DNA of 64,000 nucleotides, taken from positions 1 through 64,000 of IMG/VR virus record IMGVR_UViG_3300014043_000004. One strand, given 5' to 3'. Below the pieces are notes generated by a model. That model did not search any database. It was not told the origin of the DNA and was given only the letters and a program-made list of their open reading frames with translations. The DNA comes from a virus. Its lineage: Duplodnaviria; Caudoviricetes. The number at the start of each line of letters is the position of its first letter. Position 1 is the first letter of the stretch. The translations under genes and the position numbers were made by a program. Of this stretch, positions 9,242 through 29,943 are shown one piece after another.

Positions 9242-9784
9242 ATGAAGAATCCCAGAATCACTCAAGAAGAAATTGAGATAATCAAAAAAGCGCAAGCAGG
9301 TGACAAATCTGCTTTTTCAAAATTGTACTACCGATATAAACCATTTGTGGAGAATATTTTGTATCGATATATAAAAGACAAAGATGAGGCACGAGATATT
9401 GCCAACATCGTGTTTTTAACTGTACATAGGAAACTCTCAATGTTCACAGCATATGACTCCTTTGGAGGATGGCTGAGAATAATAACAAATCACACCGCAA
9501 TCGATTATCTTCGAACAAAGCATGAATCACAGGACATTGAAGAAGAACGACTATCTTTGGATATGCCTGGTTCTACTGAGGATGACCTTGTCAATCATCT
9601 TACAAGTAAACAGTTGATCGCCGAGTTTAATAAACTGCCTGAAATCACTCGTAAGATTTTCAAGTTGTTTTATGAAGAAGACATGAAAGTGGATGAGATT
9701 AGTGACGCGCTGAGAATCCCAGTTGGAACTATTAAGTCAACACTGTCGAGGACTAGACGCAGAATTAAAAAACGTTTAATCTAA
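9242..9784 (+). CDS. ECF-type sigma-70 family factor
   Basis: AQAGDKSAFSKLY, DEARDIANIVFL, FGGWLRII..HTAIDYLR (region 2); LPE..RKIFKL...EISDALRIPVGTIKSTLSR (region 4). Confidence 0.9.
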   Translation: MKNPRITQEEIEIIKKAQAGDKSAFSKLYYRYKPFVENILYRYIKDKDEARDIANIVFLTVHRKLSMFTAYDSFGGWLRIITNHTAIDYLRTKHESQDIEEERLSLDMPGSTEDDLVNHLTSKQLIAEFNKLPEITRKIFKLFYEEDMKVDEISDALRIPVGTIKSTLSRTRRRIKKRLI

Positions 9785-9789
9785 AAATT

Positions 9790-10200
9790 ATGACATTCTT
9801 AATGTTCATTCTTGGAATACTTCTTATTCTTTGTATCGCACGGTACAATGAGAGTAATAAGTTATTCTGGACACTGCTCACAGCATACGTGCTGTGTTTT
9901 ACAGTGGTAAAGGTGGTTAAAGGCGCCTTTAACGAGAAGGAACAAAGTGAACAGTCACTCAACCAGGCGTATCCCACACAGGGGTTGGATTTGGCGTCAG
10001 ACACATGTATGTGTTTTTTGGCAGACGAACCAATGAAGACAATCGTGAAGGAGACTTCAAAACCTGTGGGTCAGGTTAATACGCCTGATTACGTTGAGAA
10101 GATTATCACTTTAAGTGATGTCTCAGTGGTGACACCGGGACAATACCTTCACACACTGCCAAACCCACCAAACAGTGTAATACTTTTTGATACATCATGA
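9790..10200 (+). CDS. membrane protein (possible anti-sigma)
   Basis: Two N-terminal TM helices directly after the ECF sigma gene. Confidence 0.65.
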   Translation: MTFLMFILGILLILCIARYNESNKLFWTLLTAYVLCFTVVKVVKGAFNEKEQSEQSLNQAYPTQGLDLASDTCMCFLADEPMKTIVKETSKPVGQVNTPDYVEKIITLSDVSVVTPGQYLHTLPNPPNSVILFDTS

Positions 10201-10280
10201 CTGATGTAATTAACTAGTATGGCTTACAGATAAGTAGTCCAGCCAACTACAAGTATTTAATTTAAAAAACCGTTATCAAA

Positions 10281-11750: not shown

Positions 11751-11788
11751 GACGCTGGTGGCTTCATTAACTTAAATCTATCAAAGGT

Positions 11789-12232
11789 ATGAAATATATT
11801 ACAACAATCCTTTGTGCTATAGCATTTGCTTTTTCTGGAGCTATGCTGGCATTATCGGATGACAATTCGACGATTAGAAAACATTCTACCGTCAGCGCCG
11901 CCGTTGTGCCAAATTATGGATTTCCAACGACGCCACTTATTAATCAGTTTGACACTGATAAGAAGTACACAAAAACGGATACAGTCTACTTGGATACGTA
12001 CACGGCAGTATTGCCGCCGCGTCCGATAAAAACTGTAACTAAAGTTAAACCCATATATCTTCCTGCACCTACACAAGAAGATACAGAGTCATGTACAGTA
12101 GATAAGTTCCATACGGATTCTGTTAAAAACAAAGTAGGCGTGGTTCGTGAGGAGTACACCACAGACACTATTGGACCTCCTGATAAGTCCATTATCCTTA
12201 TTGTCGACGGTAAGGAAGTCTATAAACGATAG
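11789..12232 (+). CDS. exported protein
   Basis: N-terminal signal peptide; Pro/Thr-rich; TAG stop. Confidence 0.7.
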   Translation: MKYITTILCAIAFAFSGAMLALSDDNSTIRKHSTVSAAVVPNYGFPTTPLINQFDTDKKYTKTDTVYLDTYTAVLPPRPIKTVTKVKPIYLPAPTQEDTESCTVDKFHTDSVKNKVGVVREEYTTDTIGPPDKSIILIVDGKEVYKR

Positions 12233-12239
12233 TCACTCC

Positions 12240-14460
12240 GCAGCTGGGGGATAGGGAGATACTGCTCTCTGTCCCCAGAGCAATGCATACTCTTTCGTAG
12301 AACAGCTGGTCAGTGCATTTCAGGTGGGTCTCATTAGCCCAGGCACGAAATAGTACAACTTGATCCGAGAATATGTTAGCCTGCTCAACAGGTGAGAAAC
12401 GCAAAAGGTAGGATGAAATGCTATAAAGATTGCGACGTACTACACAATTTGAAAACTTTATAGTAAGAGGATTAAAGCGCATGTATCAAGTCCTTCTGCT
12501 CCGAGAACCGACTGGTGGGGGAAAGTAAACAGTAAAAGGCGCGTAAGTCTCGAAAAGAGCAAAACTGAACCGTATCGACAATCTAAGCGATGATACATAA
12601 ACTTAGAATTAACGTCACACGAGCTGCAACATTACATTTATCCAAGGCATGTAATGATGTATCAATTAAGCTGTAGTCTAGTGTTCCACGTCTCCACAAC
12701 GTGTATGAAGGGATGAAAAATATCTGAGTAAACTATATTGTGAGAATAATACTCACAAGTTGTATGGTAAATATGACGCCTATGTAAAACCTTGCCGTTC
12801 GATTCGCAAACATCTCGTAAAAGAGCTTGTGAGAGTCTAACATGGTAACTTGATGATATACGAGATGGCAACACGTCCAAAATCGGTGTCCAGGGATGGG
12901 GTAAAACGGCTGATTACGTTGAAGATGACCGCCAGGCCTTAGTCGTTCATGCGGGATATAAAAGTAGAATGACTACCGGGGTAGGGCAACCCCCGAAGCT
13001 CAGGTGAGCGCGCGGATGAAGCCCGCGTAGAAAGGCTATTTCAAAGATAGTTAATACTGGTAAGCGAGTATGATACTATAGAACGATCTATGTTATGAGG
13101 AAATGCAGCATAGTAAGATGACCACTTGACAGTCAAAAACAAAATAAAGAGGTCGATTCAAAGACTATACACGCCAGTATAGAGGGAGATCGCTTCTTTC
13201 GAAAGCATTAAATAACCAGATGATTGTACTTGTGTTACTACATCATATGGGAATACTGTAGAGTAGTAAACTACATACCATGTGTGAACGATACATTACA
13301 TGTAAGTGATTCTGTATAAAAAGATGTAAGTAGAAAACAATAAGTGATATTAACATGTTTAACAAAAATTGATGTCCCCTGGCTGGGAGAAAGATAAAGA
13401 CTACGTTTGTAATGTTTGTGAGTGCTTTCACGCCAGAAATCGAGTGCCAACCGTTCCTGAGAAGCAAGTAGCAAGATGGGAAACTAAGCGAAGCATAGAC
13501 TGCAAATCTATGTGGGTGGATACCATGAAGCAATATGCGTCAACGATGCAAGGCAGCTATCGTGAAGTGAAATCACCTCCCTGTCTCGGAGGGGTAAAGC
13601 GACTGGTTAATAGTCCATCGCAAGATGGTTCGCTGTTGCCAGAAACCGACGAAACGAATCCGTAGTGGGTGATAAATCTAGACGTATGAGGTGGAATTCC
13701 TCCAGTATTCGTGCACTATAAATAAATGAGGCAAGCAATATGCCAAGAGAAGAAAACAAGCCGTAAAGTCGTTAGGAAGAATCCTGAATCGTAGTACTTG
13801 AAAAGAGCTTTGGAACTCTTAGACTGTTCGATAACGAAACGTACTCCTCACGTACACCACACGCACGGTGTATAAAAAGCAGGAAAAAACAAGCCTGTCA
13901 TAGTGGACAGGAGCCCCCCGCGATGTTGCTGAGCGGAATATAAATCATGGCATCAGCGTAGTAGATTCGAATGTTCTTGGGAAATACATTATCGAAGATA
14001 TTACAAAAATTTTACGGGTATTAAATATTGGACTTAGTAAGACTATTCTACGAGCATTAGTCCTTCGTGAAATTTTGTCAACGAATAGTTTGAAAGTGAA
14101 TCAATATATGTTTTACAAAAAATAAACATTTTAACATACAGAAAGAAAACTTAGCATTTGATTATGCACAGTCAGCATTTAAAGTTTAAGAACCTATTAA
14201 TGCTATAGGTATAAATATCCTACCGTTGGATTCCTGTTACATGAGTTGAGCTTCACATTTGCCATACTTAAATGTATTGGGTCGAGGAATATAGAAGTGT
14301 AACAACATTAATAGAAACGTGCTTCCCATTAGCACAGCAACTGGCGTAATAAGTAACAAACAATCGCGCTCGTAGAGCCAGCGAGCCGGAGCGTATTTTT
14401 TTAATATAGGCAACTCCGCCTTGAAGGAGAAAAAATTAATCTTGTCGTTGGTGGATCAAC
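12240..14460 (+). ncRNA. ~2.2-kb structured non-coding region (one or more large RNAs)
   Basis: No convincing ORF; GNRA-capped hairpins (e.g. CCATC-GCAA-GATGG) and pseudoknot-like elements. Confidence 0.5.
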
Positions 14461-14485
14461 CACGATATCAAAAAGGATAAGAAAA

Positions 14486-15148
14486 ATGGAAAAAACAAAC
14501 ACTATTGATGTCAACATCAATACTACATTGGCTGGCGCACGCCAGACTGCAAGCCTCATTGGCGGTCTTCTTGGTAAAGCTTACGCAACCGTAGAGGCAC
14601 GTGACATATGGCAGGGTGGTAAAGAAGGTTACGAACGTGACAAGGCTGCTGCAGCAACATCTGCCGCACTCATCACCAATCGTTCTCCTCGTAAGTTTAT
14701 GCTGAAGACTCAGGATATCCTGGGTGCGGTAACGTATCAGCAGCCTATGACGAAGCAGATTGGTATCGCAATCAACCTGCGTTCTGACGGAACTTACGAC
14801 ATGTTCTTCCCGCTCGACGGAACAAACCCAGTAATAGCTGAGAAGCCTATTGCTGATGCTGTATCCGACGCCATTCACGGAGAAGGTAACAACTTCTTCT
14901 TGGAGCCTACAAAGGTGGTTAACATCATCAATGAGGGCAACCGTGCAGAGATCAAGAACATCGACAATTTGGTTTCGTCCTTGCTGAAGATGAAGCAGAA
15001 TCTTCTTACCGCTGTAAACGAGAATGAGAAGAAGGCTGCAGAGATCGAGAAGGAGTGGATCAATTCTAAGATCGACGGAGTTGGCATCAAAGAGGTGATT
15101 GCAGGTAGCAATGCAACACTCAACGTTCATACATCTACTGAAGGATAA
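14486..15148 (+). CDS. hypothetical protein
   Basis: 220 aa, biased codons. Confidence 0.8.
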   Translation: MEKTNTIDVNINTTLAGARQTASLIGGLLGKAYATVEARDIWQGGKEGYERDKAAAATSAALITNRSPRKFMLKTQDILGAVTYQQPMTKQIGIAINLRSDGTYDMFFPLDGTNPVIAEKPIADAVSDAIHGEGNNFFLEPTKVVNIINEGNRAEIKNIDNLVSSLLKMKQNLLTAVNENEKKAAEIEKEWINSKIDGVGIKEVIAGSNATLNVHTSTEG

Positions 15149-15150
15149 AT

Positions 15151-17509: not shown

Positions 17510-17538
17510 CGTATGTTTAACCTAATAGAAAAACTGAT

Positions 17539-18300
17539 ATGGGACATAGCAGCATACGTATTAAGATTCGTAGAAGAAAAGTAGCGAATCTTGCAGCCTA
17601 CAGTCGTCAACACACCGTTAGAAATTGTACAATACCCAAAGTCGATAAAAACGACATAATAGATGTCAAATATCCTTGGGGTGTTGTAAAAGGCACCAAA
17701 GGAGGTGGATGGGATATTCCAAAAGAAGGTTATCCACAGTGTAAAAATCTTCATAAGAGAATACATGGACAGAAGTGGGTGAAACATAAAGATGGTACCA
17801 CAGAACTCATAAAGTGGGATTATCCGTCCGAGTTCCCCAATCCACAAGACTATCAAAAGAAATTGTGGAAGAACCTTAGTAAAGCTGATAAAATGAAAGC
17901 TTACGAGGATGAAAAGGTAAGAAAGTGGGATAAGAAGAATCCAAAACCATGCCCTGAAGACGATCTGTTCAAGGACGAGTTTATCCCAATGTGGGAAAAA
18001 GAGCGTGAGGAAGCTTTGACACGAATACGAGACTTTGTTGTCTCGATGTTTGACAAATTGCCGTTAACTGGTCGGTACAAAGAAGGTGACAATAAGTTCA
18101 CTGAAAAACCAGTTGCAGAGCTTAAAGATGTTAATGGAGATGGACATCGAGTAAACGAACTCGATTCCAAATCTAAACTTCTGAATAAAGCTCAAAAGGT
18201 GACCAATAAAGAGAAAGCTAACAATGCTAAACTAGTCGCCACAAATCTGAAGGACCACAAGCGGAAGAAAGGAAGAGTAATACTTCCTAAAGCCGCATAA
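17539..18300 (+). CDS. basic protein ending -PKAA
   Basis: 253-aa ORF. Confidence 0.8.
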   Translation: MGHSSIRIKIRRRKVANLAAYSRQHTVRNCTIPKVDKNDIIDVKYPWGVVKGTKGGGWDIPKEGYPQCKNLHKRIHGQKWVKHKDGTTELIKWDYPSEFPNPQDYQKKLWKNLSKADKMKAYEDEKVRKWDKKNPKPCPEDDLFKDEFIPMWEKEREEALTRIRDFVVSMFDKLPLTGRYKEGDNKFTEKPVAELKDVNGDGHRVNELDSKSKLLNKAQKVTNKEKANNAKLVATNLKDHKRKKGRVILPKAA

Positions 18301-18369
18301 TGCTTAGTAAAGCCTCTGCATAGCACGTAACTAAGTGTGGTCTAGCACACTACTACAAGGTGTGCAAAA

Positions 18370-18497
18370 GGGATATTTGACAGGGAATGGTACACCGGCG
18401 CCTCGCTGCATACATGCAAACAGGAACGAGAGGAAGGTATTCTCGGTAAAGGTTGAAACAAAATGTTTAATGGAGGTTCGAGTCCTCCAATATCCCC
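18370..18497 (+). ncRNA. extended tRNA-like element
   Basis: GGGATATT/AATATCCC closing stem; T-arm GGAGG-TTCGAGT-CCTCC; oversized centre. Confidence 0.45.
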
Positions 18498-18524
18498 TAG
18501 TATTAACCAAAGAACCTAAGAGTC

Positions 18525-20444
18525 ATGTGGATACGGAATGATCTAGTCGTTATATACGATATAGAAATCTTTCCAAACTGCTTCCACTGTTGCTGTAAAG
18601 ATACAGAAGATGGTAAAATTTATAAGTTCGAAATATCAGAACGAAAGAATCAGCTTACAGACTTAGTTGATTTCTTTTTAAAGCCTAAGATAATATTCGC
18701 AGGCTACAACAACCATCATTATGATGATGTCATAATTAACTACATAATAGATTATAAGAGTAAACTGGCAAGGCTACCATATTGGCAAGTTTGCCAGTCT
18801 CTTTTTAATCTATCTACTACGATAGTGGAAGACGAGGAAGGGAGTCGTGAGAAGCTCAAGCGATGGAAGTATGCACATTACTTCAAATCTATGGACTTAC
18901 TCACAATGCAGTTTAGTCAAAAGTTACGAGTAGGCTTAAAAACCATGCAAGTAACTATGCACTATAAAAACGTGCAAGAATACGATGGAGACTTTAACCA
19001 GCCTCTACCAGTAGATAAGATTGACGAAATGATTGCATATAACATAAATGATGTCGAATCGACTACAGAGTTATTAAACCGCTTGAAAGAGCAAATCGAT
19101 TTAAGATTGTTTATTGAAAAAGAACACGGCATAGATTGTCTCTCTATGGACAGTGTTAAAATGGCAGAGACCTTCTTGTTAGAAGAATATTCTAAGAAGT
19201 CAGGTATTCCTAAAAATGTTATAAAGGAAATGCGTTCTCCAATGGATTATATTCCACTGAAGGATGTTATTTTGCCATTTATAAAATATAAAAATCCAAA
19301 GTTACAAGCCGTTCTAGAGGATATGAAGAAGCAGGTAGTATACTCTAAAGAGCGCAAAGGCTATGAGAAGAAGTTTGTTCTCTCAAATGTGGTGTATTCT
19401 GTAGGTGTTGGTGGTATACATTCTATTAACACTCCACAAATATTCCACCCTAAAGATGACGAGCACATAGGACACGCTGATGTAACGTCCATGTATCCGT
19501 CTTTGTTGATCAAATATCAACTTGGACCTCGACACTTAGGAAAATTTTTTTGCGATATATTCGAAGGCATATACTACGAACGAATAGAAGCAAAACGTAC
19601 TGGTCAAAAGATTAAGAACCTGTTTTTAAAGATCGTGCTTAATTCTCCTACTGGAAAAATGCAGCAGGAGGTGAGTTGGATGTATGATCCGTTCAATGTT
19701 TTTAAGATTAGAATAAACGGTCAGCTAATTCTTTTAATGCTCGTAGACAGACTTTTAGAGCTCGGATGTGAAATTATTCAGGTAAACACAGACGGCGTTG
19801 TCTACAGGGCTAAAAACAGCCTTAAAGATGGAATTCAGGAAGCCATTCATGAGGTTGAACAAATCACTCAACTTGGTTTTGAAGTAGATGAGTACGAAGC
19901 TTTCTATCAATACGCTATTAATGACTACTTTGGGGTCTTAAAGGGCGGAGAGATAGAAGAAAAAGGTATGTTTATAACTAAGACCAAATTAGGCAAAGGT
20001 TTAGCACCGGTAGTAATACCGAAAGCTATAATAGCATACTTTGTACACAAAACGCCGGTGGCAGAGTTTATTGAGAAGGACAGAGACATCCGGGATTTCT
20101 TAATGTCACAAGCAGTAGATAAGAAGTTCAAAGTTGTACATGGTGAAAAACCTATACAACGTATCAATAGATTTTATGCAAGCACTAACGGACCATATCT
20201 TTATAAAGTAAAGAAAAATGATAATCCTGGACACCATACACTCATAAATCCATGGGGATACCCAGAGGAATATGATATTCCAGAAGAGTCGTGGTCTAAT
20301 ATGTTAACCAAATCAGGAGTAACAATCCTGAATAAATTTGATGATCTACCGATAGAAGATCGAAAGATTAACTATCGTTACTATATCAGTGAAGCCAAAA
20401 AAGTGATAGCAGACTTTACTGAACAACAGCTATCATTATTTTAG
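18525..20444 (+). CDS. polB: DNA polymerase family B
   Basis: Exo YDIE, GYNNHHYD, YNINDV; Pol DVTSMYP, KIVLNSPTGK, NTDG; C-terminal QLSLF. Confidence 0.92.
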   Translation: MWIRNDLVVIYDIEIFPNCFHCCCKDTEDGKIYKFEISERKNQLTDLVDFFLKPKIIFAGYNNHHYDDVIINYIIDYKSKLARLPYWQVCQSLFNLSTTIVEDEEGSREKLKRWKYAHYFKSMDLLTMQFSQKLRVGLKTMQVTMHYKNVQEYDGDFNQPLPVDKIDEMIAYNINDVESTTELLNRLKEQIDLRLFIEKEHGIDCLSMDSVKMAETFLLEEYSKKSGIPKNVIKEMRSPMDYIPLKDVILPFIKYKNPKLQAVLEDMKKQVVYSKERKGYEKKFVLSNVVYSVGVGGIHSINTPQIFHPKDDEHIGHADVTSMYPSLLIKYQLGPRHLGKFFCDIFEGIYYERIEAKRTGQKIKNLFLKIVLNSPTGKMQQEVSWMYDPFNVFKIRINGQLILLMLVDRLLELGCEIIQVNTDGVVYRAKNSLKDGIQEAIHEVEQITQLGFEVDEYEAFYQYAINDYFGVLKGGEIEEKGMFITKTKLGKGLAPVVIPKAIIAYFVHKTPVAEFIEKDRDIRDFLMSQAVDKKFKVVHGEKPIQRINRFYASTNGPYLYKVKKNDNPGHHTLINPWGYPEEYDIPEESWSNMLTKSGVTILNKFDDLPIEDRKINYRYYISEAKKVIADFTEQQLSLF

Positions 20445-20468
20445 TAATTACAGAACCAACGAGTCAGT

Positions 20469-21035
20469 ATGATTATTGAAGTAAACACAAAGCTCTTGGA
20501 TTTATATCCAGAGTTAAACGCAAATCAATTATTGTTTCTGAGTATTGTGTTGGATAAGAATCAGCCTAAATATCAAGACGTCCGCAAGATTGTCAGCCTA
20601 ATCAGCGACGACGAAATACAATACTTAATCGATCAGCATTTGGTCACCTCGATTGGGAGAGATGATTCAGTTACATACAAACCAACAGAGAAGATTGAAC
20701 AAGAAATAGCACCTAGTAAAGACTATTTTGATCTTTTCTATGATATGTATCCAGTGTATGTTGTTCGTTCAGATGGAAGTAAGTCATATTTACGCGCAAA
20801 TGTAAATAAATGCCGTCACTTCTTTAACACAAAATGTGGAAAAAGTTCCGCAATGGCAGAACATATAATTAAATGTCTCGAGTATGAAATAGACAAAAGA
20901 ATGCGAGAAGGCAGTATTAGTTATATGATGACAATGTGGAATTGGTTGACTAGAAGTCAATGGGAAGCAGTTGAAGATGAGATGGAAGACAGAAAACAAA
21001 TACCAGTAAATTCTTATGGAACAGACATTATCTAA
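20469..21035 (+). CDS. putative replication organiser/helicase loader
   Basis: Between PolB and DnaB; FDLFYDMYP...WNWL pattern of phage replication initiators. Confidence 0.55.
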   Translation: MIIEVNTKLLDLYPELNANQLLFLSIVLDKNQPKYQDVRKIVSLISDDEIQYLIDQHLVTSIGRDDSVTYKPTEKIEQEIAPSKDYFDLFYDMYPVYVVRSDGSKSYLRANVNKCRHFFNTKCGKSSAMAEHIIKCLEYEIDKRMREGSISYMMTMWNWLTRSQWEAVEDEMEDRKQIPVNSYGTDII

Positions 21036-22911
21036 TATAGTTCGACCAATGTCAGTTGTTGCTCAAGAAGCAATCAACTATATTGAAGGACGAAGAGAAC
21101 ACAATGTTGTATCTCTAAAAACTAGATGGAAGAAGTTTAATAAGCAATGTATGGGAGGTATAGAACCAAATACCGTTTACACCATAGCTGGTATATCTGG
21201 AAGTGGTAATAAATCGTTCGGTAACTGCAACCTAACGCACCCGTTTTGTCGTTATAAATAAAAACGACATGGCAAATTATAATTATTTTGACACAATAGA
21301 TACTGAAAACAAAGCCTACTGGCTTGGATTTTTGTTTGCCGACGGAAATATAACAACTCCATATCGGATAAATAAAGACGGGTCTATTAAAAACGGGATT
21401 TATAGGATAGAAATATCTTTGAAAGCAGAAGACAAAGAACATTTGGATAAGTTTAGAATAGAATTAGGTATAGAAAAGCCTTTAAATATATCTAATACGA
21501 ATTTTAATAGTTCTGACAGATGTAGATTGTATTTTAACAATAAACATATGTGGGAAGTATTGAATTCATATGGATGTACGCCAAAGAAGTCAAAAACTTT
21601 AAAATTTCCACCAACTTCTATATTTAAGAATAAATCATTGATTAGACACTTTATTCGAGGATATTATGATGGCGATGGATGTCTATCTTGGTGCGATACA
21701 AATCACAAAAGAGCTCATGTTGGAGTATTAGGAACATTTGAGTTTCTGACTGAACTTCAGCATTGGTTACCTTTGGAATTCGAAAATGTTATCTTGAAAA
21801 AGCCAGAAGAAACTGTATCTACATTGTATTTTACAGGGAAAACTGGGTTTTTTGTTGCAAACTATTTGTACAAAAATTGTTCTGTCTGTTTAGAAAGAAA
21901 ATACGAACGATATTCAGAATATTGCCGTTTATACTTGGAAGAGTATAAATTACGATTGGGCAAATACGGCGAACTTTGGAATGAGAATGCCGTGGTAAAC
22001 TCAGAGATTACGAAAGGCTCTGGGTCACCGTACAGCGTAGAGGTTGAATAAATATAATACCTCCAAGAGTGTCCAACATCCCAACTGAAATAAGTGGATG
22101 AAAACGTACGCGGGGCTACATCATACGCAGGAAGGATGTAGAAGTTAGGATAAAAAGCCTGACGATAACAAAACCGAAGTCCTCATTTGTTAATGAGATG
22201 ACTACCGACATAATTGATTTGAATCCTGATGAAGATATAATCGTTTTAAATTTCTCGTTAGAGATGGTTGGATTTAGGCAAGTTGGAAGAACGCTTTCTA
22301 ATAAATTAAGAAGAACTACTTCTGCCTTGTATAGTTCGGAAACGGACCTCGATGAAGAAACTTTTAAAAAAGTCATTGCAGTATCCAATAAACTGAAGGA
22401 ATATCCCATTTACTTTGTAGATGATCCAGGTACTCCTTCAGAAGTAGAACGAATTATTAAAAGATTTTATGAGGCATATGTGAAAGGTACGAAAAAACAT
22501 TTCATTATCTTTTACGATCATACGCTATTGACAAAACAAGTTGGTTCTGTAATAGAAACAACGTCAGAGCTTGAGCGAGTATTTATACAAGCGAAAAAGT
22601 ATCCAATGACGTCAATAGTACAGATCGCACAAATGAATCGTAATATCGAATCTTCAGAAAGGATAAACAACCCATCGAGTCATTACCCGATGAGAAGTGA
22701 TTTATCGTCATCTGATGCAATGTTTCAGGCAAGCGATTATGTGCTTGTTATGCATAGACCAGAAATATTGAATATCCAAGAATACGGTCCAAACCGATTA
22801 CCTACACAAAATAAAGTTTACATGCATATGTTGAAAAACAGAGACGCTGGTAAACCTTGTATTCTTGAATTCGAGAATGACTTGGCGTTTAATAATCTGG
22901 TAGAATGTTAA
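21016..22911 (+). CDS. dnaB: DnaB-like helicase, exons 21016-21207 and 22177-22911 (~308 aa)
   Basis: Splicing restores Walker A AGISGSG|KSS; FSLEM, AQMNR, SDLSSSDAMFQASD, KNRD motifs. Confidence 0.9.
21208..22176 (+). mobile_element. group I intron in dnaB
   Basis: Exon ends in T, intron ends in G, in-frame join, contains homing endonuclease. Confidence 0.8.
21269..22051 (+). CDS. LAGLIDADG homing endonuclease
   Basis: AYWLGFLFADG and HFIRGYYDGDG motifs. Confidence 0.9.
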   Translation: MANYNYFDTIDTENKAYWLGFLFADGNITTPYRINKDGSIKNGIYRIEISLKAEDKEHLDKFRIELGIEKPLNISNTNFNSSDRCRLYFNNKHMWEVLNSYGCTPKKSKTLKFPPTSIFKNKSLIRHFIRGYYDGDGCLSWCDTNHKRAHVGVLGTFEFLTELQHWLPLEFENVILKKPEETVSTLYFTGKTGFFVANYLYKNCSVCLERKYERYSEYCRLYLEEYKLRLGKYGELWNENAVVNSEITKGSGSPYSVEVE

Positions 22912-22954
22912 TGCTTTAGATGACAAGTATTAACTTTTAAATTTAGGCTGAATT

Positions 22955-23434
22955 ATGATTACAACATATACTTTTGGTAAGAACGACAACAACAAGTTTA
23001 ACTTTTTTCACACTAGTAGCAAACCCAATTACTCTAAGATTCTTGATGACATTATTATTTCTGATGTAATTAAGAAGAATAGTTATTTGTTGAACAAGAG
23101 CAACACTTACATTAATAACACCGACGATATTCTCCTTGGTGCAAATTCATATGCGAGTGACCTTGATAAGGCTATTTTGTTCCTTGCCAATTACAAGAAG
23201 TATAAGAAGATCTATTTGAATAAGATTCCTTATGCTTTGAATAAGATGTACACACTTTCGGATGGTACACCCATCATTTTTTACGATGATGAGATTCAGA
23301 TTGGTTTTGATACCTATAGTTATAGCAACTTTAATAATGCTGATTTCATTAGCAGTCTGACTCCGAAGAAAAAGGATATTATCATTAATATTTTCAACAC
23401 CATCGGTGCAGATATTAAGATCAATATTTTATAA
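22955..23434 (+). CDS. hypothetical protein
   Basis: 159-aa ORF in replication operon. Confidence 0.7.
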   Translation: MITTYTFGKNDNNKFNFFHTSSKPNYSKILDDIIISDVIKKNSYLLNKSNTYINNTDDILLGANSYASDLDKAILFLANYKKYKKIYLNKIPYALNKMYTLSDGTPIIFYDDEIQIGFDTYSYSNFNNADFISSLTPKKKDIIINIFNTIGADIKINIL

Positions 23435-23451
23435 TTAGAACTATAAGTCAT

Positions 23452-25038
23452 ATGATAGTATTACCTACTAATAAAGTTCCTGCAACTTCGATGAATCCTC
23501 AGTATTTGATTTTATACGGTTTGCCTAAACTATTTGGGCCTTTAAATAGAAATATTTATCGAAAAAACGCTTAATTGCTGAAACCTGTTTATGTTGTTTA
23601 TACGTTATATAACAAAGAACGGATAAATAATATTAACACGATTAGCAGCTAAGTTATGGTTAAAGAAGAAACAATAAATAGATATAAAGAGTATATCGGA
23701 AAAGATTTCGGATGTATTCATGTAGATGATATAGATTTATCTGCAATATCTAAAAACAGGATATATTTTTTATGCACTTGTACAAAATGTGGAGCAAAAC
23801 TTCGCATACGAAACGATGGATTATTGAAAAAACGTCCTTGTGAATGTTGTATAAAGTGTATTGGTAAATGGAGAAAAGAACACTTTAACGATTTATATAA
23901 ATATAAACCGGAAAAGGTGTTCAGAGAAAAACATACTCATTTTAGAGCAAATGCAAACATAAGAGGAATTGGGTATTTTCTCACATTAGATGATATAGTT
24001 GATTTATGTAGTCAACCATGTCATTATTGTGGAAAAGAACGCTGTCTTGGAATAGATAGAGTTGATAATTCAAAACCTTATACACGAGATAACTGCGTAC
24101 CATGTTGCGGATGCTGTAATAAGATGAAGATGGATTTAGAATTATCATTTTTCCTAGACCAAATAGAAAGAATATATAATAATATTGAAACCATAAAAAG
24201 TTCAACGACTATCTCGAAAGAGAGTACATCTAAAACGTTTGTAGATGGAAATGGCGTTCACCTTAGTCATAAATAGACAGGTGGTGATATAGTCTAATCT
24301 GTATGGTGACATGCAGCAGTTCATAAGAGAACGTATCTGGAGTAGTGAACCAGATAGAATATAGTGAAATCGGGTAAAACAAGTGCAGTAGCACAACTGG
24401 AGAATAATCTCATAATAGACCTAGAAGGCGGATCTAAGTTTATTGATGCACTTGCCATACAGGCGCGTACCATCAACGACCTTGGAGAAATTGCACAAGC
24501 CATTCGAGCTAAGAATGAAGAAGTAGGACATAATTTTTATAAACACATAACAATTGATAACGCTACTCGTCTTGAAGATATTTGTATGAGCTATGCGTGC
24601 ACCCTTTACAGACAGACAGAATTAGGCAAGAACTGGAAAGGAAACGACGTTACAACGCTTGCGCGTGGAGCAGGCTATAAGTATCTAAGAGATGCAGTAA
24701 AGAAGGTTATTGATATGTTCAAGGACCTTTGTGATGAATTTATTCTGATAGGACACGTTAAAGATTCTATTACTGATAAAGACGGAGAAGAAGTAAATGC
24801 CAAAGAAATCGACCTTGTTGGAAAATTGGGAAAAATCGTATGTGGAATGGCTGATGCAGTCGGATACGTCTATAGGAAAGACAATGAGACACACATTAGT
24901 TTTAAATCCGGAGGTGATGGCACAATCATGGAGGCTCGCGCTAGACATATCGCGGGTCGAGACATTGTCATTGCGACCGGAAATGATGATGGATCTATAA
25001 CGACCTATTGGGACCGTGTTTATAAACCCGAACCATGA
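23452..25038 (+). CDS. AAA ATPase (Sak4-like), exons 23452-23526 and 24367-25038
   Basis: Splicing restores LILYGLP|KSGKTS; IIDLEGG, ITIDN, ILIGH motifs. Confidence 0.85.
23527..24366 (+). mobile_element. group I intron in AAA ATPase gene
   Basis: P1 GCCT|AAA-CTA-TTTGGGC with U.G at the splice site; TCAACGACTA and GATATAGTC core; terminal G at 24366. Confidence 0.88.
23656..24276 (+). CDS. HNH-type homing endonuclease
   Basis: CHYCG...GIDRVDNSKPY...NCVPCCGCCNKMK. Confidence 0.85.
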   Translation: MVKEETINRYKEYIGKDFGCIHVDDIDLSAISKNRIYFLCTCTKCGAKLRIRNDGLLKKRPCECCIKCIGKWRKEHFNDLYKYKPEKVFREKHTHFRANANIRGIGYFLTLDDIVDLCSQPCHYCGKERCLGIDRVDNSKPYTRDNCVPCCGCCNKMKMDLELSFFLDQIERIYNNIETIKSSTTISKESTSKTFVDGNGVHLSHK

Positions 25039-25151
25039 GTACAGGAGATGTAATTATATTGTGTAGTGTTATTGTAGCAGGTGTAATCCTGTGTCTTGCA
25101 CCACATATTGTAGATAAGTCTACTAACGAAAACGATTGGACAGAACTTTAA
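25035..25151 (+). CDS. small membrane peptide (38 aa)
   Basis: MSTGDVIILCSVIVAGVILCLAPH...; ATGA overlap with ATPase stop. Confidence 0.55.
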   Translation: MSTGDVIILCSVIVAGVILCLAPHIVDKSTNENDWTEL

Positions 25152-25164
25152 GTCAGAGGAAATT

Positions 25165-25794
25165 ATGTATAGTACTAAAACAGCAACAACAAACAACGAG
25201 GAGTTTAATAGCTCCTATATGCCTGTAGGCATCAATGAAAACGTAACCTTGAAAGAGGTTAATGTAAACAAAACTGAGAATGGTCGTGATTTCTTGGAGA
25301 TTATCTTTGAGAATGAAAACGGTCAGACAGCAACTATGACCGAGTGGAAGAACGAGAAGAATATGTGGATCAAGACTGATGAAGAACTTCAGAAGCGCGA
25401 TGATCAGCAGTTTGGTCGTATTCTACAGGTTATAGATGCAGCAACTGGATCACACACAGACTTTGAGGGCAGTTCGTTTACAGAGATGATTAATTGGGTA
25501 AAAGCTCAGCTTGAACCAGCTACAAATCCTGCAAATATACGTCAAAGTATGCGTCTTAAGGTTGTTTACGACAAGAAGGGTTATACGAAAGTTAGCTCTC
25601 TTGGTGTTTTTGTTGAACCTATGAGTGTAGAGCAGTCTCAGATTAAGCTTTGGAAGAATGACCTTCTGGAGCGCCCTATACAGGCTGATGTAGAAAAGCC
25701 TATTGATCCGCTTATTGCAGCTGCAAACGAAGCAATTGCACTCAATACTCCGGTTACTGAGACTTCAACAGGTGCTGACGACCTGCCATTTTAA
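25165..25794 (+). CDS. ssb: single-stranded DNA-binding protein
   Basis: Follows Sak4-like ATPase; acidic tail GADDLPF. Confidence 0.7.
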   Translation: MYSTKTATTNNEEFNSSYMPVGINENVTLKEVNVNKTENGRDFLEIIFENENGQTATMTEWKNEKNMWIKTDEELQKRDDQQFGRILQVIDAATGSHTDFEGSSFTEMINWVKAQLEPATNPANIRQSMRLKVVYDKKGYTKVSSLGVFVEPMSVEQSQIKLWKNDLLERPIQADVEKPIDPLIAAANEAIALNTPVTETSTGADDLPF

Positions 25795-26058
25795 TCTAGA
25801 GTTTAAGCCGCTTGTATGTAAACCATACGAAGCTGCAAGAATTTTAGGTCAAATTATAAATGGTCAGTGGTGGAGGACTGGAGGTTAATCCTTCAGCCCC
25901 TAACGAAGAGGTCAAATTATATCGCTCCTCTTACAAATAAACACGGCGATATATGGGTTGGAGAAATCCTGAAGTGTGATCCTGGACGGCTGCGTATGAA
26001 AAATTACGTAATTGGGTTCGAATCCCAACACACAACAATACAAAAGAGCTTATAAGCC

Positions 26059-27027
26059 ATGTATAGTACAAAAACAGCAATTACAATGAGTCTTAGAGAC
26101 TTATTGGATAAAGTGGATGACTATACTATCTATTCATATTATTTAGGTCCATTTAAACCTGGTAAGTTAATGAATAGTCCATTACGCAGTGATGATAAGA
26201 TGCCATCTTTCGCTATATTTCCTACAAAGGATGGTGCATTGCTGTTTAAAGACCACGGAACTGGAGTTGCAGGTAATGCGCTTAAGTTTTTAAAGTTATA
26301 TAAAAGAATACAAACGCGAGAAGAATTAGAGAAAGAACTGCTTAGAATCGTTCGGCGATTCAACCCAACGAGCAGTGTGGCAACTGTGACACGGTCATAT
26401 ACTCAGCATGAGGATACTGACATCGGAATAGTTCGACAACCGTTTACTGAAGTTGATAAAAGATATTGGAAGCAATTCCACATATCTATCGATACATTAA
26501 AGCGATTCAATGTATTTAGCATTAAGTACTTTCTTTGTAATAGAGTCGTCAGAGGAACCTACAAAGAAACTAGTCCTATGTATGCATATAAGGTCTATGA
26601 TAAATTTAAAATTTATAGACCTTTAGCCTCCAAGTATACTAAATGGCGTACCAATCTGACAAATCGACACGTTCAGGGATTAGCCGAATTGCCGTATGAG
26701 GGCGGTAATCTTTTAGTTATAACCAAATCGTTGAAAGACGTTATGTGTTTATACGAGATGGGTATTAGTGCTATAGCAGCTTCAAGTGAAACAACATTTA
26801 TTCCCGATGATATCTTAAGGTCTTTAAGACGTAAATGGAAACGTGTTGTTATACTATATGATCGAGACGCAACTGGAATGATGAAAGCTCGAGATTACAG
26901 CAAACAATACAAACTAGACGCTATATTCGTCCATAAGAAATTTAAATCGAAAGATATTTCAGACGCAGTAAAAAATAACAATTTTAACACAGTCAAAGAA
27001 TGGCTGTATAAAACATTAAACATATGA
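26059..27027 (+). CDS. dnaG: DNA primase (TOPRIM)
   Basis: SPLR.D..PSF, FKDHG; LVITKSLKDVM, YDRD..G, KDISD. Confidence 0.85.
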   Translation: MYSTKTAITMSLRDLLDKVDDYTIYSYYLGPFKPGKLMNSPLRSDDKMPSFAIFPTKDGALLFKDHGTGVAGNALKFLKLYKRIQTREELEKELLRIVRRFNPTSSVATVTRSYTQHEDTDIGIVRQPFTEVDKRYWKQFHISIDTLKRFNVFSIKYFLCNRVVRGTYKETSPMYAYKVYDKFKIYRPLASKYTKWRTNLTNRHVQGLAELPYEGGNLLVITKSLKDVMCLYEMGISAIAASSETTFIPDDILRSLRRKWKRVVILYDRDATGMMKARDYSKQYKLDAIFVHKKFKSKDISDAVKNNNFNTVKEWLYKTLNI

Positions 27028-27278
27028 TAGAGACACTGATCCTCGGTATAGTAATCGGTATTATTGGTACTGGTGCTGGAGCCGCATATGCAGCGTACAG
27101 ATGGAGTAAACAACCATTTATACTGAAAAAGTTTAATAGTGGTTATCGATTAATAGCTGCAGATTTAGGAGTTGATGGAGATCCTTCAGGTTATGTAGGA
27201 TTGAAAAAAGATAATAAATTTGTTATAGGTATTAAATTTAACGATAACGGAGTAACAGATATCGTATATGATATCTAA
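27024..27278 (+). CDS. small membrane protein
   Basis: N-terminal TM helix; overlaps both neighbours. Confidence 0.65.
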   Translation: MIETLILGIVIGIIGTGAGAAYAAYRWSKQPFILKKFNSGYRLIAADLGVDGDPSGYVGLKKDNKFVIGIKFNDNGVTDIVYDI

Positions 27279-27666
27279 GTCTAAAGGTAAGGTAAAAAAT
27301 GCGACAGCGGTCGATGCGTATGGAATCCATTTTAGGAGTAAACTCGAACTCTATACGTATGAAGCTTTTATGAAAGCAGGAATACCTGTTAAATATGAGC
27401 CAAAGCATTTTACTTTACTTAAATCGTTCGAGTATATGGGTCAAAAAATAAGACCTATTACATATCTACCAGACTTCGTAGGACGAGGTTTTATAGTAGA
27501 ATGTAAAGGTCTTATGGGAGACTCTTTTCCTTTGCGTTGGAAGCTTTTCAAATATTATCTGTATAAGCATCACGCAAAAACAAAACTATATCTTGTGAGA
27601 AATCATAAAGATGTAGATTCCATGATCCAAGAATTACTAAATCAGAGACGAAAATGCAATTTATAA
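27268..27666 (+). CDS. T7 endonuclease I-like PD-(D/E)XK nuclease
   Basis: FRSKLE, YLPDF, VECKG. Confidence 0.8.
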   Translation: MISKSKGKVKNATAVDAYGIHFRSKLELYTYEAFMKAGIPVKYEPKHFTLLKSFEYMGQKIRPITYLPDFVGRGFIVECKGLMGDSFPLRWKLFKYYLYKHHAKTKLYLVRNHKDVDSMIQELLNQRRKCNL

Positions 27667-28439
27667 AAGATAAAGACCAAATAGTTCCTATGCCAAAAGG
27701 TTTGGCGTACGATCTAATCGGAGGAAAGATATACCGTTTAAAATCAACAAAAAGCATGTTTTCACGAGTAGACATGTTGATTGAAGACGGGGAATTATCT
27801 ATTCCGAATAAAGTCTATTATTCTAATGATGAAGAACTTATTGTAAAACGAGTTCTTCGTTACCACAAAGAAACTGAGAAGAATACTACAGGAGTAATGT
27901 TCTACGGAAAACAAGGTTGTGGTAAAACGTTATTGTCTAAAATAATAGCAAAAGAATCAGGACTCCCAATTATTGTAGTAGACCCATCGTTTCCTACAAG
28001 TAATCTAATGAACTTCTTTACGAGATTTAATACTGAAGTAGTAGTGTTATTCGATGAACTTGATAAACATTGCGGTAAGGATGATTATTGGGATACTGAG
28101 GATATGTTAGAATTCCTTGATGGTGTACAAGAAACAGGTAAAAAACTTGTTATATTTACTTGTAACTCGGATAAAGTGGTCAATGAATTTATGAAAGATC
28201 GCTGTGGACGTATTAGATATTATAAACAATTTGATACGTTAAGTCATAAGATGATCGTTGATATTGTTAAAGATAATATTAATGATAAAGATAAAGTTGA
28301 TAAGGTTGTTAATTTTATTGAGAATAGACTAAAGGTTCCATCTTATGACAATGTGACAGCGATATGTAAGGAAGTAAACGATTGGCCAGATTATTCTATA
28401 GAGGGATTGATTAAGGACTTAAACGTTGAACTTAAATAA
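27654..28439 (+). CDS. AAA ATPase
   Basis: GKQGCGKT, VLFDE, FTCN, DRCGRI. Confidence 0.85.
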   Translation: MQFIKDKDQIVPMPKGLAYDLIGGKIYRLKSTKSMFSRVDMLIEDGELSIPNKVYYSNDEELIVKRVLRYHKETEKNTTGVMFYGKQGCGKTLLSKIIAKESGLPIIVVDPSFPTSNLMNFFTRFNTEVVVLFDELDKHCGKDDYWDTEDMLEFLDGVQETGKKLVIFTCNSDKVVNEFMKDRCGRIRYYKQFDTLSHKMIVDIVKDNINDKDKVDKVVNFIENRLKVPSYDNVTAICKEVNDWPDYSIEGLIKDLNVELK

Positions 28440-29461
28440 TGGACATATCTATTCCATATTACGAGGATAAAACCCGTATAAGTAATTCAAACATAGGCTG
28501 GTTTCTAAACAAGGGACCAGCCTTTTTACATAAGATGCTAACAGAAGATGTTCCTGAAGAAAAGTCTCAAGCCTTGGAGCGTGGAACTATGATTCATGAA
28601 TATATTCTGCAGCCTGAAGAGTTCCAAAAAGACTATGTAGTCTGGAACAAAAGTAGACCTACTTCTGCGCAACAGGAGAAGTTCTGTCAGGTACTTGCAT
28701 CTTCACTAGAAATAGAGCCAAATAGAGCCATTCTAGACGCTTATAAACAAGCATATAGTACAGCAGGAAAGTCAGAAGACAAAATGCTGTCAGAAGGCCT
28801 TAAAATAGCCTCTACGTTGAAGGATTATATAGACTTCCTGAAAGCAAATGATGGAAGGATTATGATTGGTCCTTGGGATGTAAAAATGCTTGAGAAGATT
28901 AAGCATAACATCCAGTCTCACAAACTTGCATATAACTTAATATGGCCGTTGAGTACATTTGTCTCAAAACAAGATGGTACATATATGAGTGATGCAATAA
29001 ACGCTTGGCATGAGTTTCATATAAACTGGGGTTATGAGAACAAGATACAATGTAAATCTTTATTAGATGGTCTCACTCTCGATTTTAATAATAAGAGAGC
29101 CATTATATACGACCTTAAGACCACACAAAAGTTGTGGCATTTTGAGGATAGTATTAAGACTTACGATTATCTAAGACAGTTAGACTATTATAGTATGGCT
29201 GTCAGATGGTATCTTGTCAACGAATGTGGTGTTACAGAAGATGAAATATTTGAATGGAAATTTGAATATTACATCATTGGTATAGATACTACTGGTTCAA
29301 ACGAGATCAGAGTGTTTAAAATTGAGCAGAAAGATGTTAGTTCCAGAGATGAGACTATATTTACTGCTCTCGACCAGATAGCTTGGCATCAGTCTACAGG
29401 TAAGTGGGATCATAGTAGAGAATATTATGAAGGCGATGGCTCAGAGTCATTGAACCTATGA
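28439..29461 (+). CDS. PD-(D/E)XK exonuclease (RecE/ExoVIII-like)
   Basis: ISNS, GTMIHEYILQPEEF, CKSLLD, DLKTT, YLRQLDYY. Confidence 0.8.
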   Translation: MDISIPYYEDKTRISNSNIGWFLNKGPAFLHKMLTEDVPEEKSQALERGTMIHEYILQPEEFQKDYVVWNKSRPTSAQQEKFCQVLASSLEIEPNRAILDAYKQAYSTAGKSEDKMLSEGLKIASTLKDYIDFLKANDGRIMIGPWDVKMLEKIKHNIQSHKLAYNLIWPLSTFVSKQDGTYMSDAINAWHEFHINWGYENKIQCKSLLDGLTLDFNNKRAIIYDLKTTQKLWHFEDSIKTYDYLRQLDYYSMAVRWYLVNECGVTEDEIFEWKFEYYIIGIDTTGSNEIRVFKIEQKDVSSRDETIFTALDQIAWHQSTGKWDHSREYYEGDGSESLNL

Positions 29462-29943
29462 GTACACAAGCAAAATTATTAATCCCGCTTCTAGATGATG
29501 TTCTTAAAAAAGAATATCTCACTCCGGAAGCAGGATTTGTCGATATGTATGTACACGATAAGAATCGTCCGTATATAGAAAATTGTGTGTTTTTACTATA
29601 TAAAATCGGAGTTAAATCCGACCTTGCGTGTGAATGTGAATATTACATGCGAGAATGTAAAAATGTACACAGTGTTCGAATAGAGTATATAGACGGCGAA
29701 CCTTATCGTATATATGCATTCCATTTAATTGGAAAAGATAGCAAAAACATATATAAAGGGTTTAAACCGCGCGAAGATAAAAATATTACGCGCATTCTAG
29801 GATTTTGGATGGGAAGTGACGTTGACGTAAACAACGTCATGATGAAGAATAGTATATACGGCATTAAAGTTGATTGGAAAACTTTGCCAGAATATGATTA
29901 TCAACCATCCTTCCTAGAAACACAAATAGGTGGGTATCTATAA
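29458..29943 (+). CDS. hypothetical protein
   Basis: Last gene of the + strand operon. Confidence 0.75.
   Translation: MSTQAKLLIPLLDDVLKKEYLTPEAGFVDMYVHDKNRPYIENCVFLLYKIGVKSDLACECEYYMRECKNVHSVRIEYIDGEPYRIYAFHLIGKDSKNIYKGFKPREDKNITRILGFWMGSDVDVNNVMMKNSIYGIKVDWKTLPEYDYQPSFLETQIGGYL

Follow-up and report, generated by a model that had tools for sequence, protein, structure and literature searches.

Hairpins that carry the start codons of replication genes, together with an array of hairpins beside the tmRNA gene, point to an undescribed translational control circuit in a crAss-like gut/rumen phage. The window analysed is the first 64 kb of its 102.6-kb genome. The motif is a direct repeat of two GARYC pentamers (GARYC-N2-4-GARYC), and it occupies a 15-17-nt loop in short hairpins. 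Their stems vary by compensatory changes and include G.U pairs, and at several genes the AUG is contained in the 3' strand of the stem. We lean towards reading these elements as operators in the RNA, to which a sequence-specific and probably dimeric factor binds to control translation initiation.

A preliminary description of the window had proposed a pentamer repeat shared by the starts of sigma and replication genes, and every sequence that it quoted was found at its coordinates. The pattern AGAAYY-N2-4-RARYCA matches 13 times in the window, whereas 100 dinucleotide shuffles give an expectation of 1.45 and none got to 13; this is about 9-fold above chance. The wider pattern of the preliminary description has 14 matches in the whole genome against 3.84 expected. 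Twelve of the 13 window matches are on the + strand, and in the 30-kb early module a real gene start follows 0-10 nt after the end of 6 of the 11 + strand matches (binomial P ~2e-8). Some 80 related phage loci yield 207 unique motif contexts on the + strand versus 50 on the - strand, with an ATG 0-3 nt after the motif in 82. The proposed scan for enrichment at starts was thus borne out both in this genome and in the related loci, and enrichment, position and relatives agree on a + strand-specific repeat locked to the start codons of the replication module. A match at 17936 was checked, shows no conservation and looks like chance, as do, from their location and strand, those at 35707, 44668 and 63973. 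Two copies are additional to those first listed, at 13779 and, within the exonuclease gene, at 28715.

The motif adjoins the ATG of the genes for DNA polymerase, ORF188, a RecA-like ATPase, a 209-aa 'ssb', primase, an AAA ATPase and ORF161, all on the + strand. At the polymerase start (AGAACCTAAGAGTC-ATG, 18511-18527) the final A of the motif doubles as the A of the ATG; most of about 65 relatives keep the motif here, in forms that differ by lineage, and the relatives' annotation of this gene, first called polB, is 'DNA polymerase' only. The ORF188 hairpin (20442-20478) has the loop ca-GAACCAACGAGTC-agua, and the 3' strand of its stem begins at the UG of the AUG (20469). Sites adjoin the ATG of exon 1 of the RecA-like ATPase (AGAACTATAAGTCA-T-ATG, 23437-23454) and of the 'ssb' gene (AGAACTTTAAGTCA then GAGGAAATT-ATG, 25142-25167), whose product has no family or PDB match. 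The primase hairpin (AUACA, a 17-nt loop with AGAGCUUAUAAGCC, UGUAU; 26038-26064) places the AUG (26059) across the loop-stem junction, and that of ORF161 (GCUCA / GAGUCAUUGAACC-ua / UGAGU; 29439-29463, AUG at 29458) has GUUC/GAAU at the equivalent pairs in the relative L023.

Three of the copies first described need qualification. The AAA ATPase copy (AGAATTACTAAATCA, 27630-27656, + strand), which lies 9 nt before the ATG within the end of the upstream ORF, is degenerate in this genome, although it is perfect in the relatives cr272_1, L032 and L075 despite their differing overlapping protein sequence. The loose copy reported at 25030 is present as GAACC-ATG-AGTAC (25031-25043, + strand), and its spacer itself holds an ATG that opens a 38-aa ORF. 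The sigma copy (AGAATCCCAGAATCA, 9246-9260, + strand) is only a possible member; it is present at its coordinate but lies inside the coding sequence, beginning 4 nt past the A of the ATG (9242) and covering codons 2-6 of this ECF-type sigma gene. Roughly half of the relatives retain it, all of them with KNPRIT in the protein and AGA/ATC codons in the gene, and its conservation is confounded with coding for KNPRIT.

Pairing of the flanks over the start codon, as first claimed for several genes, is clear at ORF188 (9-10 bp including G.U), primase (ATACA/TGTAT) and ORF161 (GCTCA/TGAGT) and weak at the polymerase (3 bp), while the ATPase, 'ssb' and AAA sites carry no stem in this genome. At the ATPase site of relatives the 5' flank tracks the first codons (ATCAT/ATGAT, CCAT/ATGG, TAATC/GATTA). 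Over 159 unique start-codon sites the 5' flank pairs over 4.23 nt with its own start region versus 3.35 nt with those of other genes, and pairing of at least 5 bp is found in 42% versus 18%, homologous sites in these as in our other conservation and covariation counts not being independent of one another. In four relatives (L032, L037, L040 and L043) the motif straddles the start itself (GAACC-T-ATG-AGTC), which fits occlusion of the initiation site. Real tRNA genes of relatives end 25-28 nt before the polymerase ATG, and the motif is therefore probably within a short processed leader.

The motif is kept at equivalent genes across the related loci, and its two half-sites co-vary by lineage (GAACC/GAGTC, GAGCC/GAGCC, GTATC/GTATC and GTGCC/GTGCC); AAGCTT is a further loop variant. 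The motif, its placement and conservation, the covariation of the stems and this concerted loop change are directly supported. In Logan contigs from public RNA runs, of strains 90-97% alike, skips of 840 nt and 970 nt correspond to two inserted elements.

The preliminary description also placed the motif in an array at 6682 and in a hairpin at 14366, and it was found at both. Four loop-motif hairpins (6683-6987, + strand) lie in a non-coding stretch upstream of and adjoining the phage's own tmRNA gene. The first (AGCC / aa-GAACCTTTGAGTC-ac / GGCT, 6683-6707) has orthologues with different, complementary stems in five complete relatives; the second (6790-6818) has the loop GAACCTTTGAGTC; the third (GUGC / GAGCCAUGAGCC-g / GUGC, 6873-6893) needs two G.U pairs for its stem; and the fourth (loop ca-GAATCTTGAATC-agt, 6957-6987) has a 7-bp stem that entered the covariation test. 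In ten array hairpins 92.9% of cells pair versus 61.7% in shuffles and 31-53% in slid controls, and compensatory changes occur at 7/7 pairs in covariation sets that were selected for stems. The G.U-only stem of the third hairpin (GTRC/GGTGC) is conserved in the window and in L082, L083 and L084, and again in L092 and L093; over all stems the asymmetry favouring G.U over A.C is only modest. Single-sequence folding gave no significant z-scores, the hairpins alone folding no better than shuffled sequence.

The hairpin at 14366-14394 (CGCUC / gua-GAGCCAGCGAGCC-g / GAGCG, + strand) sits at the 3' end of a 2.2-kb non-coding region, about 90 nt upstream of ORF 14486, and a weak member (GAATCCTGAATC, 13779-13790, + strand) lies inside the same region. 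Around ten different complementary stems occupy the 14366 position among relatives, including CATCC/GGATG, CGTCC/GGACG, CGTTC/GAACG, CATTC/GAATG, CCAC/GTGG and AGTCC/GGATT. These stems were read directly; RNAalifold returned no consensus for the 14366-type hairpins, where the place of the motif in the loop shifts by 1-2 nt and the MAFFT alignment follows the motif. A further hairpin (CUAGAA / aua-GAGCCAAAUAGAGCC-a / UUCUAG, 28706-28736, + strand) lies within the exonuclease coding sequence, with no start anywhere near. Its synonymous sites are frozen (GAG in 31/31, GCC in 30/31 and ATA in 30/31) and its stem shows the compensatory change CTA..CTA to ACA..CTG. There is selection at the nucleotide level where element and coding sequence overlap, both here and in the ORF upstream of the AAA gene.

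A role for the array as a decoy, as first suggested, proved too narrow, although the motif hairpins are there. Three related genomes (two complete, one about 74% complete) have no start-codon copies in the sequence examined and keep three loop-motif hairpins upstream of the tmRNA gene, implying that the array has a function of its own and is older than the regulon. The start-codon regulon is accordingly a later expansion in one sub-clade. Since the motif is also frozen inside the exonuclease gene, away from starts, a pure start-codon operator model is insufficient, and the array in those three genomes together with this conserved copy implies that translation control is not the sole function.

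These copies away from starts are what a sequence-specific endoribonuclease, of the host or an unrecognised one of the phage, would account for, an alternative that we regard as unlikely. It would recognise or cut the hairpins; cleavage at start codons would silence replication mRNAs in the manner of T4 RegB at GGAG, and the array and the 14366 hairpin would be cut so that the tmRNA, tRNAs and a large non-coding RNA are matured or released. Such a single mechanism covers the start-codon copies, the array in genomes without the regulon, the 14366 hairpin and the exonuclease copy, and the tRNA or tRNA-like elements directly upstream of the polymerase and primase sites suggest processed polycistronic transcripts. 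However, a cleavage site needs no stems that hold the AUG and track the first codons, and no nuclease candidate was identified.

That the motif is a promoter or start-site element, read by the crAss-like virion RNA polymerase or the phage's ECF-type sigma and giving leaderless or very short-leader mRNAs, seems to us very unlikely. N4-type virion-RNAP promoters are template-strand hairpins with a 5-7-bp stem and a 3-nt loop, transcription starting just downstream; here the loops are of 15-17 nt, the AUG is inside the hairpin, and the G.U pairs that the stems need on the sense strand would be C.A mismatches on the template strand. GAAC and GTC do resemble the -35 and -10 words of ECF promoters and the phage encodes an ECF-type sigma, but those words stand about 16-17 nt apart with the start upstream of the ATG, whereas the half-sites are separated by 2-4 nt and the motif adjoins or straddles the ATG, a spacing that the preliminary description had rightly judged too short. 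The distance from motif to ATG runs from ATG-in-spacer up to 10 nt, which leaves no fixed start site for all copies; the start codon is often in a stem, and copies lie within operons of overlapping genes and within coding sequence. The motif does head genes and RNA genes in a strand-specific manner, and its lineage variation is as expected of a phage-encoded reader. In phage phi14:2 the virion RNAP transcribes the replication genes, which are early; no motif for early promoters was recognised there, and this enzyme uses single-stranded templates in vitro (10.1101/2020.03.07.982082).

It is in our judgement highly improbable that the tandem repeats serve a phage transcription repressor, such as one of the ribbon-helix-helix type, as operators in double-stranded DNA just downstream of promoter-like TATTAAC boxes. 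Ribbon-helix-helix proteins bind direct repeats with a 7-9-bp period, and the 8-9 bp period and concerted half-site change of the motif would suit tandemly bound dimers; a TAGTATTAAC box also stands 3-6 nt upstream of the polymerase and ORF188 sites, and a similar box precedes many other genes. A duplex leaves the flanking stems, with their compensatory changes and G.U pairs, unexplained; the sites are fixed relative to the ATG and not to the promoter box, and occur inside operons and coding sequence; and no ribbon-helix-helix or helix-turn-helix candidate was found besides sigma. We give very little weight to RNA-RNA pairing, in which the GARYC pentamers would wobble-pair with a word like GGUUC carried by some tRNA, tmRNA, rRNA or phage RNA. 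G.U wobble against GGUU would permit the R/Y degeneracy at positions 3 and 4, and the elements cluster with tRNA, tRNA-like and tmRNA genes, but there is no reverse-complement tandem motif on the + strand, the tmRNA has no complementary word that tracks the loop variant (G008 has GTGCC loops and no GGCAC), the GTGCC and GTATC variants misfit GGUUC, and T-loop bases are not free for pairing.

Stem covariation, G.U pairs and starts that lie within stems or within the motif spacer favour action on RNA at translation initiation. Their action as RNA, their binding by a protein and the sign of the regulation are inferred. In the RNA-operator reading they would form one family of cis-acting elements, usually with the pentamers in the loop of a short weak hairpin, whose loops are read by a trans-acting factor; the likeliest is a protein that presents two equivalent surfaces to the RNA, as a homodimer or through a tandem domain. 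Start-codon elements have the AUG at the loop's 3' edge, within the 3' stem strand or between the two pentamers, and the bound factor would keep it in the hairpin and exclude the 30S subunit. The outcome would be co-regulation, probably repression, of replication-gene translation. The array of four hairpins near the tmRNA would be bound by this factor too, as would the 14366 hairpin and the exonuclease copy, the array being its older, primary platform, which may also buffer free factor. More tentatively, we propose a new post-transcriptional system of crAss-like phages, in which a phage or host RNA-binding factor reads tandem GARYC loops, the original platform is a multi-hairpin RNA tied to tmRNA, and one sub-clade copied the site onto its replisome start codons.

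Several candidates for the factor were sought. Six-frame searches of the phage genome gave no match to SmpB, CsrA or RRM_1; the CsrA family (PF02599) gave nothing at E <= 0.1 in the whole genome, its control matching E. coli, B. subtilis and T. maritima, and the RegA family (PF01818) gave no match in the phage genome, nor in the control genomes. The unassigned early-module proteins have no Pfam or PHROG match, and presence/absence profiling found no early-module gene whose distribution follows that of the regulon. ORF 11789 was rejected because it has a signal-peptide-like N-terminus and is missing from the motif-rich L075-L081, and ORF 14486 because it has positional orthologues everywhere. 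ORF 16010 is a predicted helical protein (pLDDT 91) with no PDB fold match, and the ESM Atlas gave no lead for it or for ORF 6149. The host protein RbpB (RRM-1) was rejected as reader because the ligand motifs reported for it in Bacteroides (GUAGGAUA and a 41-nt FopS motif) do not resemble GARYC.

Few viruses of animal guts are as abundant as crAss-like phages, and the timing of their gene expression is largely obscure; a conserved, covarying RNA element with a dozen copies per genome offers a concrete handle on it. The array RNA could serve as bait for the factor, the operator is testable by simple reporters, and the loop variants GAGCC, GTGCC and GTATC are a ready-made series for work on specificity. 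RNA family databases would gain the element as a new entry, and it also gives a hint of what the conserved non-coding RNA adjoining the phage tmRNA may do. Phage phi14:2 makes two abundant early non-coding RNAs with no assigned function (10.1101/2020.03.07.982082). If our proposal is right, replication-gene translation would be tied to the level of the array RNA, possibly to ribosome-rescue or tRNA status, and such control would operate in hosts without CsrA and Hfq.

The expectation that the motif belongs to no described family was upheld. The hairpins have no Rfam 15 match at gathering scores across the window or at E <= 1 over 6600-9250, 12200-14500 and 18300-29600, and the literature on crAss promoters, leaderless mRNAs, translational repressors and non-coding RNA hairpins held nothing on the motif. 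The nearest likeness is to CsrA/RsmA with the sponge RNAs CsrB/RsmZ (Gammaproteobacteria, Bacillus), which share a short motif in hairpin loops, targets that overlap the ribosome-binding region of several mRNAs and a two-fold symmetric binder, as would be expected here. The multi-copy non-coding RNA, here the four hairpins with covarying stems, is alike in layout only. Csr/Rsm reads GGA in small loops and at the Shine-Dalgarno sequence, in contrast to a tandem GARYC pair in one large loop, and here the phage has no CsrA homologue and the multi-hairpin RNA occurs also in genomes without target sites. Bacteroides is itself reported to lack CsrA (PMC13370968).

Two systems of phage T4 resemble the present elements in position. 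RegB is an endoribonuclease that cuts GGAG in Shine-Dalgarno sequences, likewise a sequence-specific RNA signal at the translation starts of early phage mRNAs. RegA co-represses translation of many early mRNAs, including those of replisome genes, via operators that overlap the AUG, as the motif does here at several early and replication mRNAs; its operators are loosely conserved, AU-rich and unstructured, whereas ours are a defined tandem pentamer, often in a hairpin loop, and we know of no sponge RNA for RegA. The coat-protein operators of MS2, PP7 and Q-beta are small hairpins that hold the start codon of the regulated gene and are stabilised by a dimeric protein, which blocks initiation. 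Those phages have one operator per genome, with a 4-6-nt loop and a bulged A, bound by the capsid protein, whereas here a DNA phage carries a dozen copies with 15-17-nt loops.

The tandem repeat of two GARYC-type pentamers, set 2-4 nt apart and often in a hairpin loop, is concentrated in the early/replication module, which comprises the + strand genes to ~30 kb, where the coding strand flips. Every copy quoted in the preliminary description was found in place, and its assignment of the motif to start codons is borne out: six of the 11 + strand matches in that module have a gene start 0-10 nt past their end (P ~2e-8). The pattern AGAAYY-N2-4-RARYCA gave 13 matches against 1.45 expected, 12 of the 13 on the + strand, and the stricter AGAAC-N3-6-AGTCA gave six against 1.3 expected, all on the + strand. 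Matches at 17936, 35707, 44668 and 63973 fit chance expectation; conservation was checked at 17936 and none was found.

The record, of which the window forms the first 64 kb, is a single virus record of 102,611 bp whose replication genes share ~72% nucleotide identity with crAss-like phages, the closest named relatives being cr272_1 and cr273_1 (Suoliviridae, Oafivirinae, Buhlduvirus). Family searches support an ECF-type sigma factor (9242-9784), a DnaB-like helicase, a Toprim primase, an AAA ATPase, a DUF1064 protein and an exonuclease. The name "DNA polymerase" for the 639-aa protein rests solely on the annotation of relatives, and none of the searches run on the 209-aa 'ssb' backed its name. 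The 'ATPase' gene at 23452 is RecA-like, and its Walker A motif is interrupted by an 840-nt insertion (23527-24366), a probable group I intron, with an HNH ORF (23656-24276) and, at 24089-24316, a group I intron match that falls below threshold; in contigs from three RNA-library runs 23526 is joined directly to 24367, although these contigs may come from strains lacking the intron and not from spliced RNA. A 970-nt insertion between two parts of the helicase gene (21207-22176; LAGLIDADG ORF 21269-22051) is absent from contigs of related strains. ORFs 1204, 1523, 2969 and 3226 (1204-3438) encode related proteins that are small, basic and Cys-rich, have an N-terminal KYKPGQF-like motif in common and look like zinc ribbons.

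We retrieved 80 IMG/VR loci around polymerase homologues (62-94% amino-acid identity), ~65 of them usable at the polymerase start. In most of these the tandem repeat abuts the polymerase ATG directly, with a TAGTATTAAC box upstream of it and, farther upstream, a tRNA or T-arm-like hairpin. The repeat reads AGAACC..GAGTC in most loci; other variants have the halves swapped (AGAGTC..GAACC) or equal (AGTATC..AGTATC; AGAGCC..AGAGCC), and between lineages the two halves vary in concert. Furthermore, one variant is reused across the genes of a genome, as in the related locus L023, with AGAGCC pairs at the polymerase, ORF188 (an early ORF starting at 20469) and the RecA-like gene. Relatives also retain the motif at ORF188, the RecA-like gene, 'ssb', the primase, the AAA ATPase and ORF161 (starting at 29458). 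Across all loci, 207 unique motif contexts lie on the + strand against 50 on the other, and the ATG begins 0-3 nt past the motif in 82 of the 207; in some relatives the spacer contains the ATG (GAACC-T-ATG-AGTC). Where the motif overlaps coding sequence, nucleotide conservation exceeds the protein's requirement, and locus L032 has a perfect motif ahead of the AAA gene despite a differing overlapped peptide.

Flanks had been described as pairing over several start codons. In this genome they do so at ORF188, the primase and ORF161, by just 3 bp at the polymerase, and not at the ATPase, 'ssb' and AAA genes. The ORF188 stem is 9-10 bp, A/U- and G.U-rich, its 3' strand starting at the UG of AUG; AUACA/UGUAU closes a 17-nt loop at the primase; and the ORF161 stem GCUCA/UGAGU has GUUC/GAAU as its equivalent pairs in L023. 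At the RecA-like gene of relatives the 5' flank tracks the first codons (AUCAU/AUGAU, CCAU/AUGG, UAAUC/GAUUA). Over 159 unique but non-independent start-codon sites, matched flanks pair over 4.23 nt compared with 3.35 nt for flanks from other genes, and pairing of at least 5 bp is seen in 42% and 18%, respectively. None of the hairpins folded better than shuffled controls, and in the absence of a partner they are marginal structures. A 38-aa hydrophobic ORF (25035-25151) starts at the spacer ATG of a loose motif copy and has its stop codon within the 25142 motif. The 'ssb' (25165-25190) and primase (26059-26084) genes open with the same ~20 nt (ATGTATAGTAC.AAAACAGCAA; MYSTKTA), which is conserved in relatives.

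Genuine tRNA genes (Met, Leu, Ser) end 25-28 nt ahead of the polymerase ATG in relatives, hence the polymerase motif probably lies within a short leader left after tRNA processing. In the window the polymerase and primase operators each have a lone T-arm-like hairpin ~20 nt upstream, at 18472-18488 (GGAGGTTCGAGTCCTCC) and ~26012-26028 (TTGGGTTCGAATCCCAA), respectively, and neither hairpin receives a tRNA call from ARAGORN or Rfam. A second conserved leader class, serving a different early-gene set at many loci, comprises a (TA)TTAAC box, TTAAA, ~5 nt and TTATCAAA-ATG; in the window it is found within the 45 nt upstream of 846, 4955, 6149, 10281 and 16679. The TATTAAC-like box, common to this class and the operator-bearing genes, may be the module's promoter element.

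Non-coding sequence at 6662-7000 contains four motif copies, every one in a hairpin loop (the array, 6683-6987). The same four hairpins occur in five complete relatives, with stems that are very different yet complementary (ACGTC/GACGT, AAAGC/GCTTT, TAGAGT/ACTCTA, CACAGT/ACTGTG), and hairpin 3 requires two G.U pairs wherever recovered (the window, L082, L083, L084, L092, L093). When a set of ten hairpins is aligned in a single register, 92.9% of the cells are paired, compared with 61.7% in shuffles and 31-53% in slid controls, a figure biased upward because the set was selected for having stems; compensatory changes fall at 7/7 pairs. The 14366 position, ~90 nt upstream of ORF 14486, has ~10 different complementary stems in relatives around the loop (T)AGAGCC-N3-GAGCC, and this hairpin is a member of the array family. 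It ends a 2.2-kb stretch (12233-14485) that holds the 13779 motif copy, is ORF-free and matches nothing in Rfam; in the corresponding position cr272_1 has an equally long unannotated gap. The conserved leader of ORF 14486 (14440-14485) consists of a hairpin, ATATCAAAAAGGA and the ATG, the hairpin being TCGTTGGTGGATCAACCACGA in the window and TCGTTAGTTAATCAATAACGA in other lineages, a compensatory change. Within the exonuclease gene, a hairpin at 28706-28736 has synonymous sites frozen in ~30 relatives and one compensated stem pair.

The array lies immediately upstream of the tmRNA in every relative examined. At 7120-7460 is a phage circularly permuted (two-piece) tmRNA with the tag GDVNIVDYTGLKEAA, scoring 45 bits with Rfam tmRNA_permuted, slightly below the 47-bit cut-off, and followed by tRNA-Met, tRNA-Arg and tRNA-Thr. 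Three related genomes, G006, G008 and G009, have no start-codon copies in the sequence examined (G008 and G009 complete, G006 ~74% complete). Upstream of its tmRNA each retains three of the loop-motif hairpins, one loop variant being common to all three hairpins of a genome (GAGCC-TTT-GAGCC, GAGCC-TT-GAGCC and GTGCC-TT-GTGCC across the three genomes). We infer that the array predates the start-codon regulon. The array had been proposed as a decoy; since these genomes keep the hairpins without start-codon copies, it is not merely a decoy for replication-gene operators. In G008 a concerted A-to-T change in six pentamers points to a shared putative reader with shifted specificity.

The AUG is placed within the stem, at the loop edge or in the spacer, the stems covary and contain G.U pairs, sites occur within operons with overlapping genes, and the motif-to-ATG distance ranges from negative to 10 nt. 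These observations incline us towards the motif being an RNA element, at which binding of a factor would control translation initiation at the start codon. That the two half-sites are equal and vary in concert suggests a reader with two-fold symmetry. The strongest rival, which we consider rather unlikely, is that the copies are sites for a sequence-specific endoribonuclease, which would also account for the array beside RNA genes and the copy within a coding sequence. Taken together, the AUG placement, covarying G.U stems, intra-operon sites and variable ATG distance argue against both a duplex-DNA operator and a promoter with a fixed start site, and the half-site spacer of 2-4 nt rather than 16-17 argues against an ECF promoter, as the preliminary description had objected. 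RNA-RNA pairing of the loops is unsupported, as a complementary tandem is absent and no word in the tmRNA covaries with the loops. The factor of the proposed RNA initiation element was not found in Pfam/PHROG searches of early unknown proteins or in six-frame SmpB, RegA, CsrA and RRM_1 searches of the phage genome, the RegA search giving no match in its control genomes either; the factor would come from the host or be a conserved phage protein whose fold is unknown.

The motif had been put forward as a candidate new regulatory system, and a search of Rfam 15 gave no match between its hairpins and a described RNA family; we found no paper on it. A study of phi14:2 reported no early promoter motif, and describes two early non-coding RNAs that are abundant but for which no function is known (10.1101/2020.03.07.982082). 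In layout the arrangement here is like CsrA/CsrB, and in logic like T4 RegA or the coat-protein operators of RNA phages; the parts that define those systems were not found in this phage.
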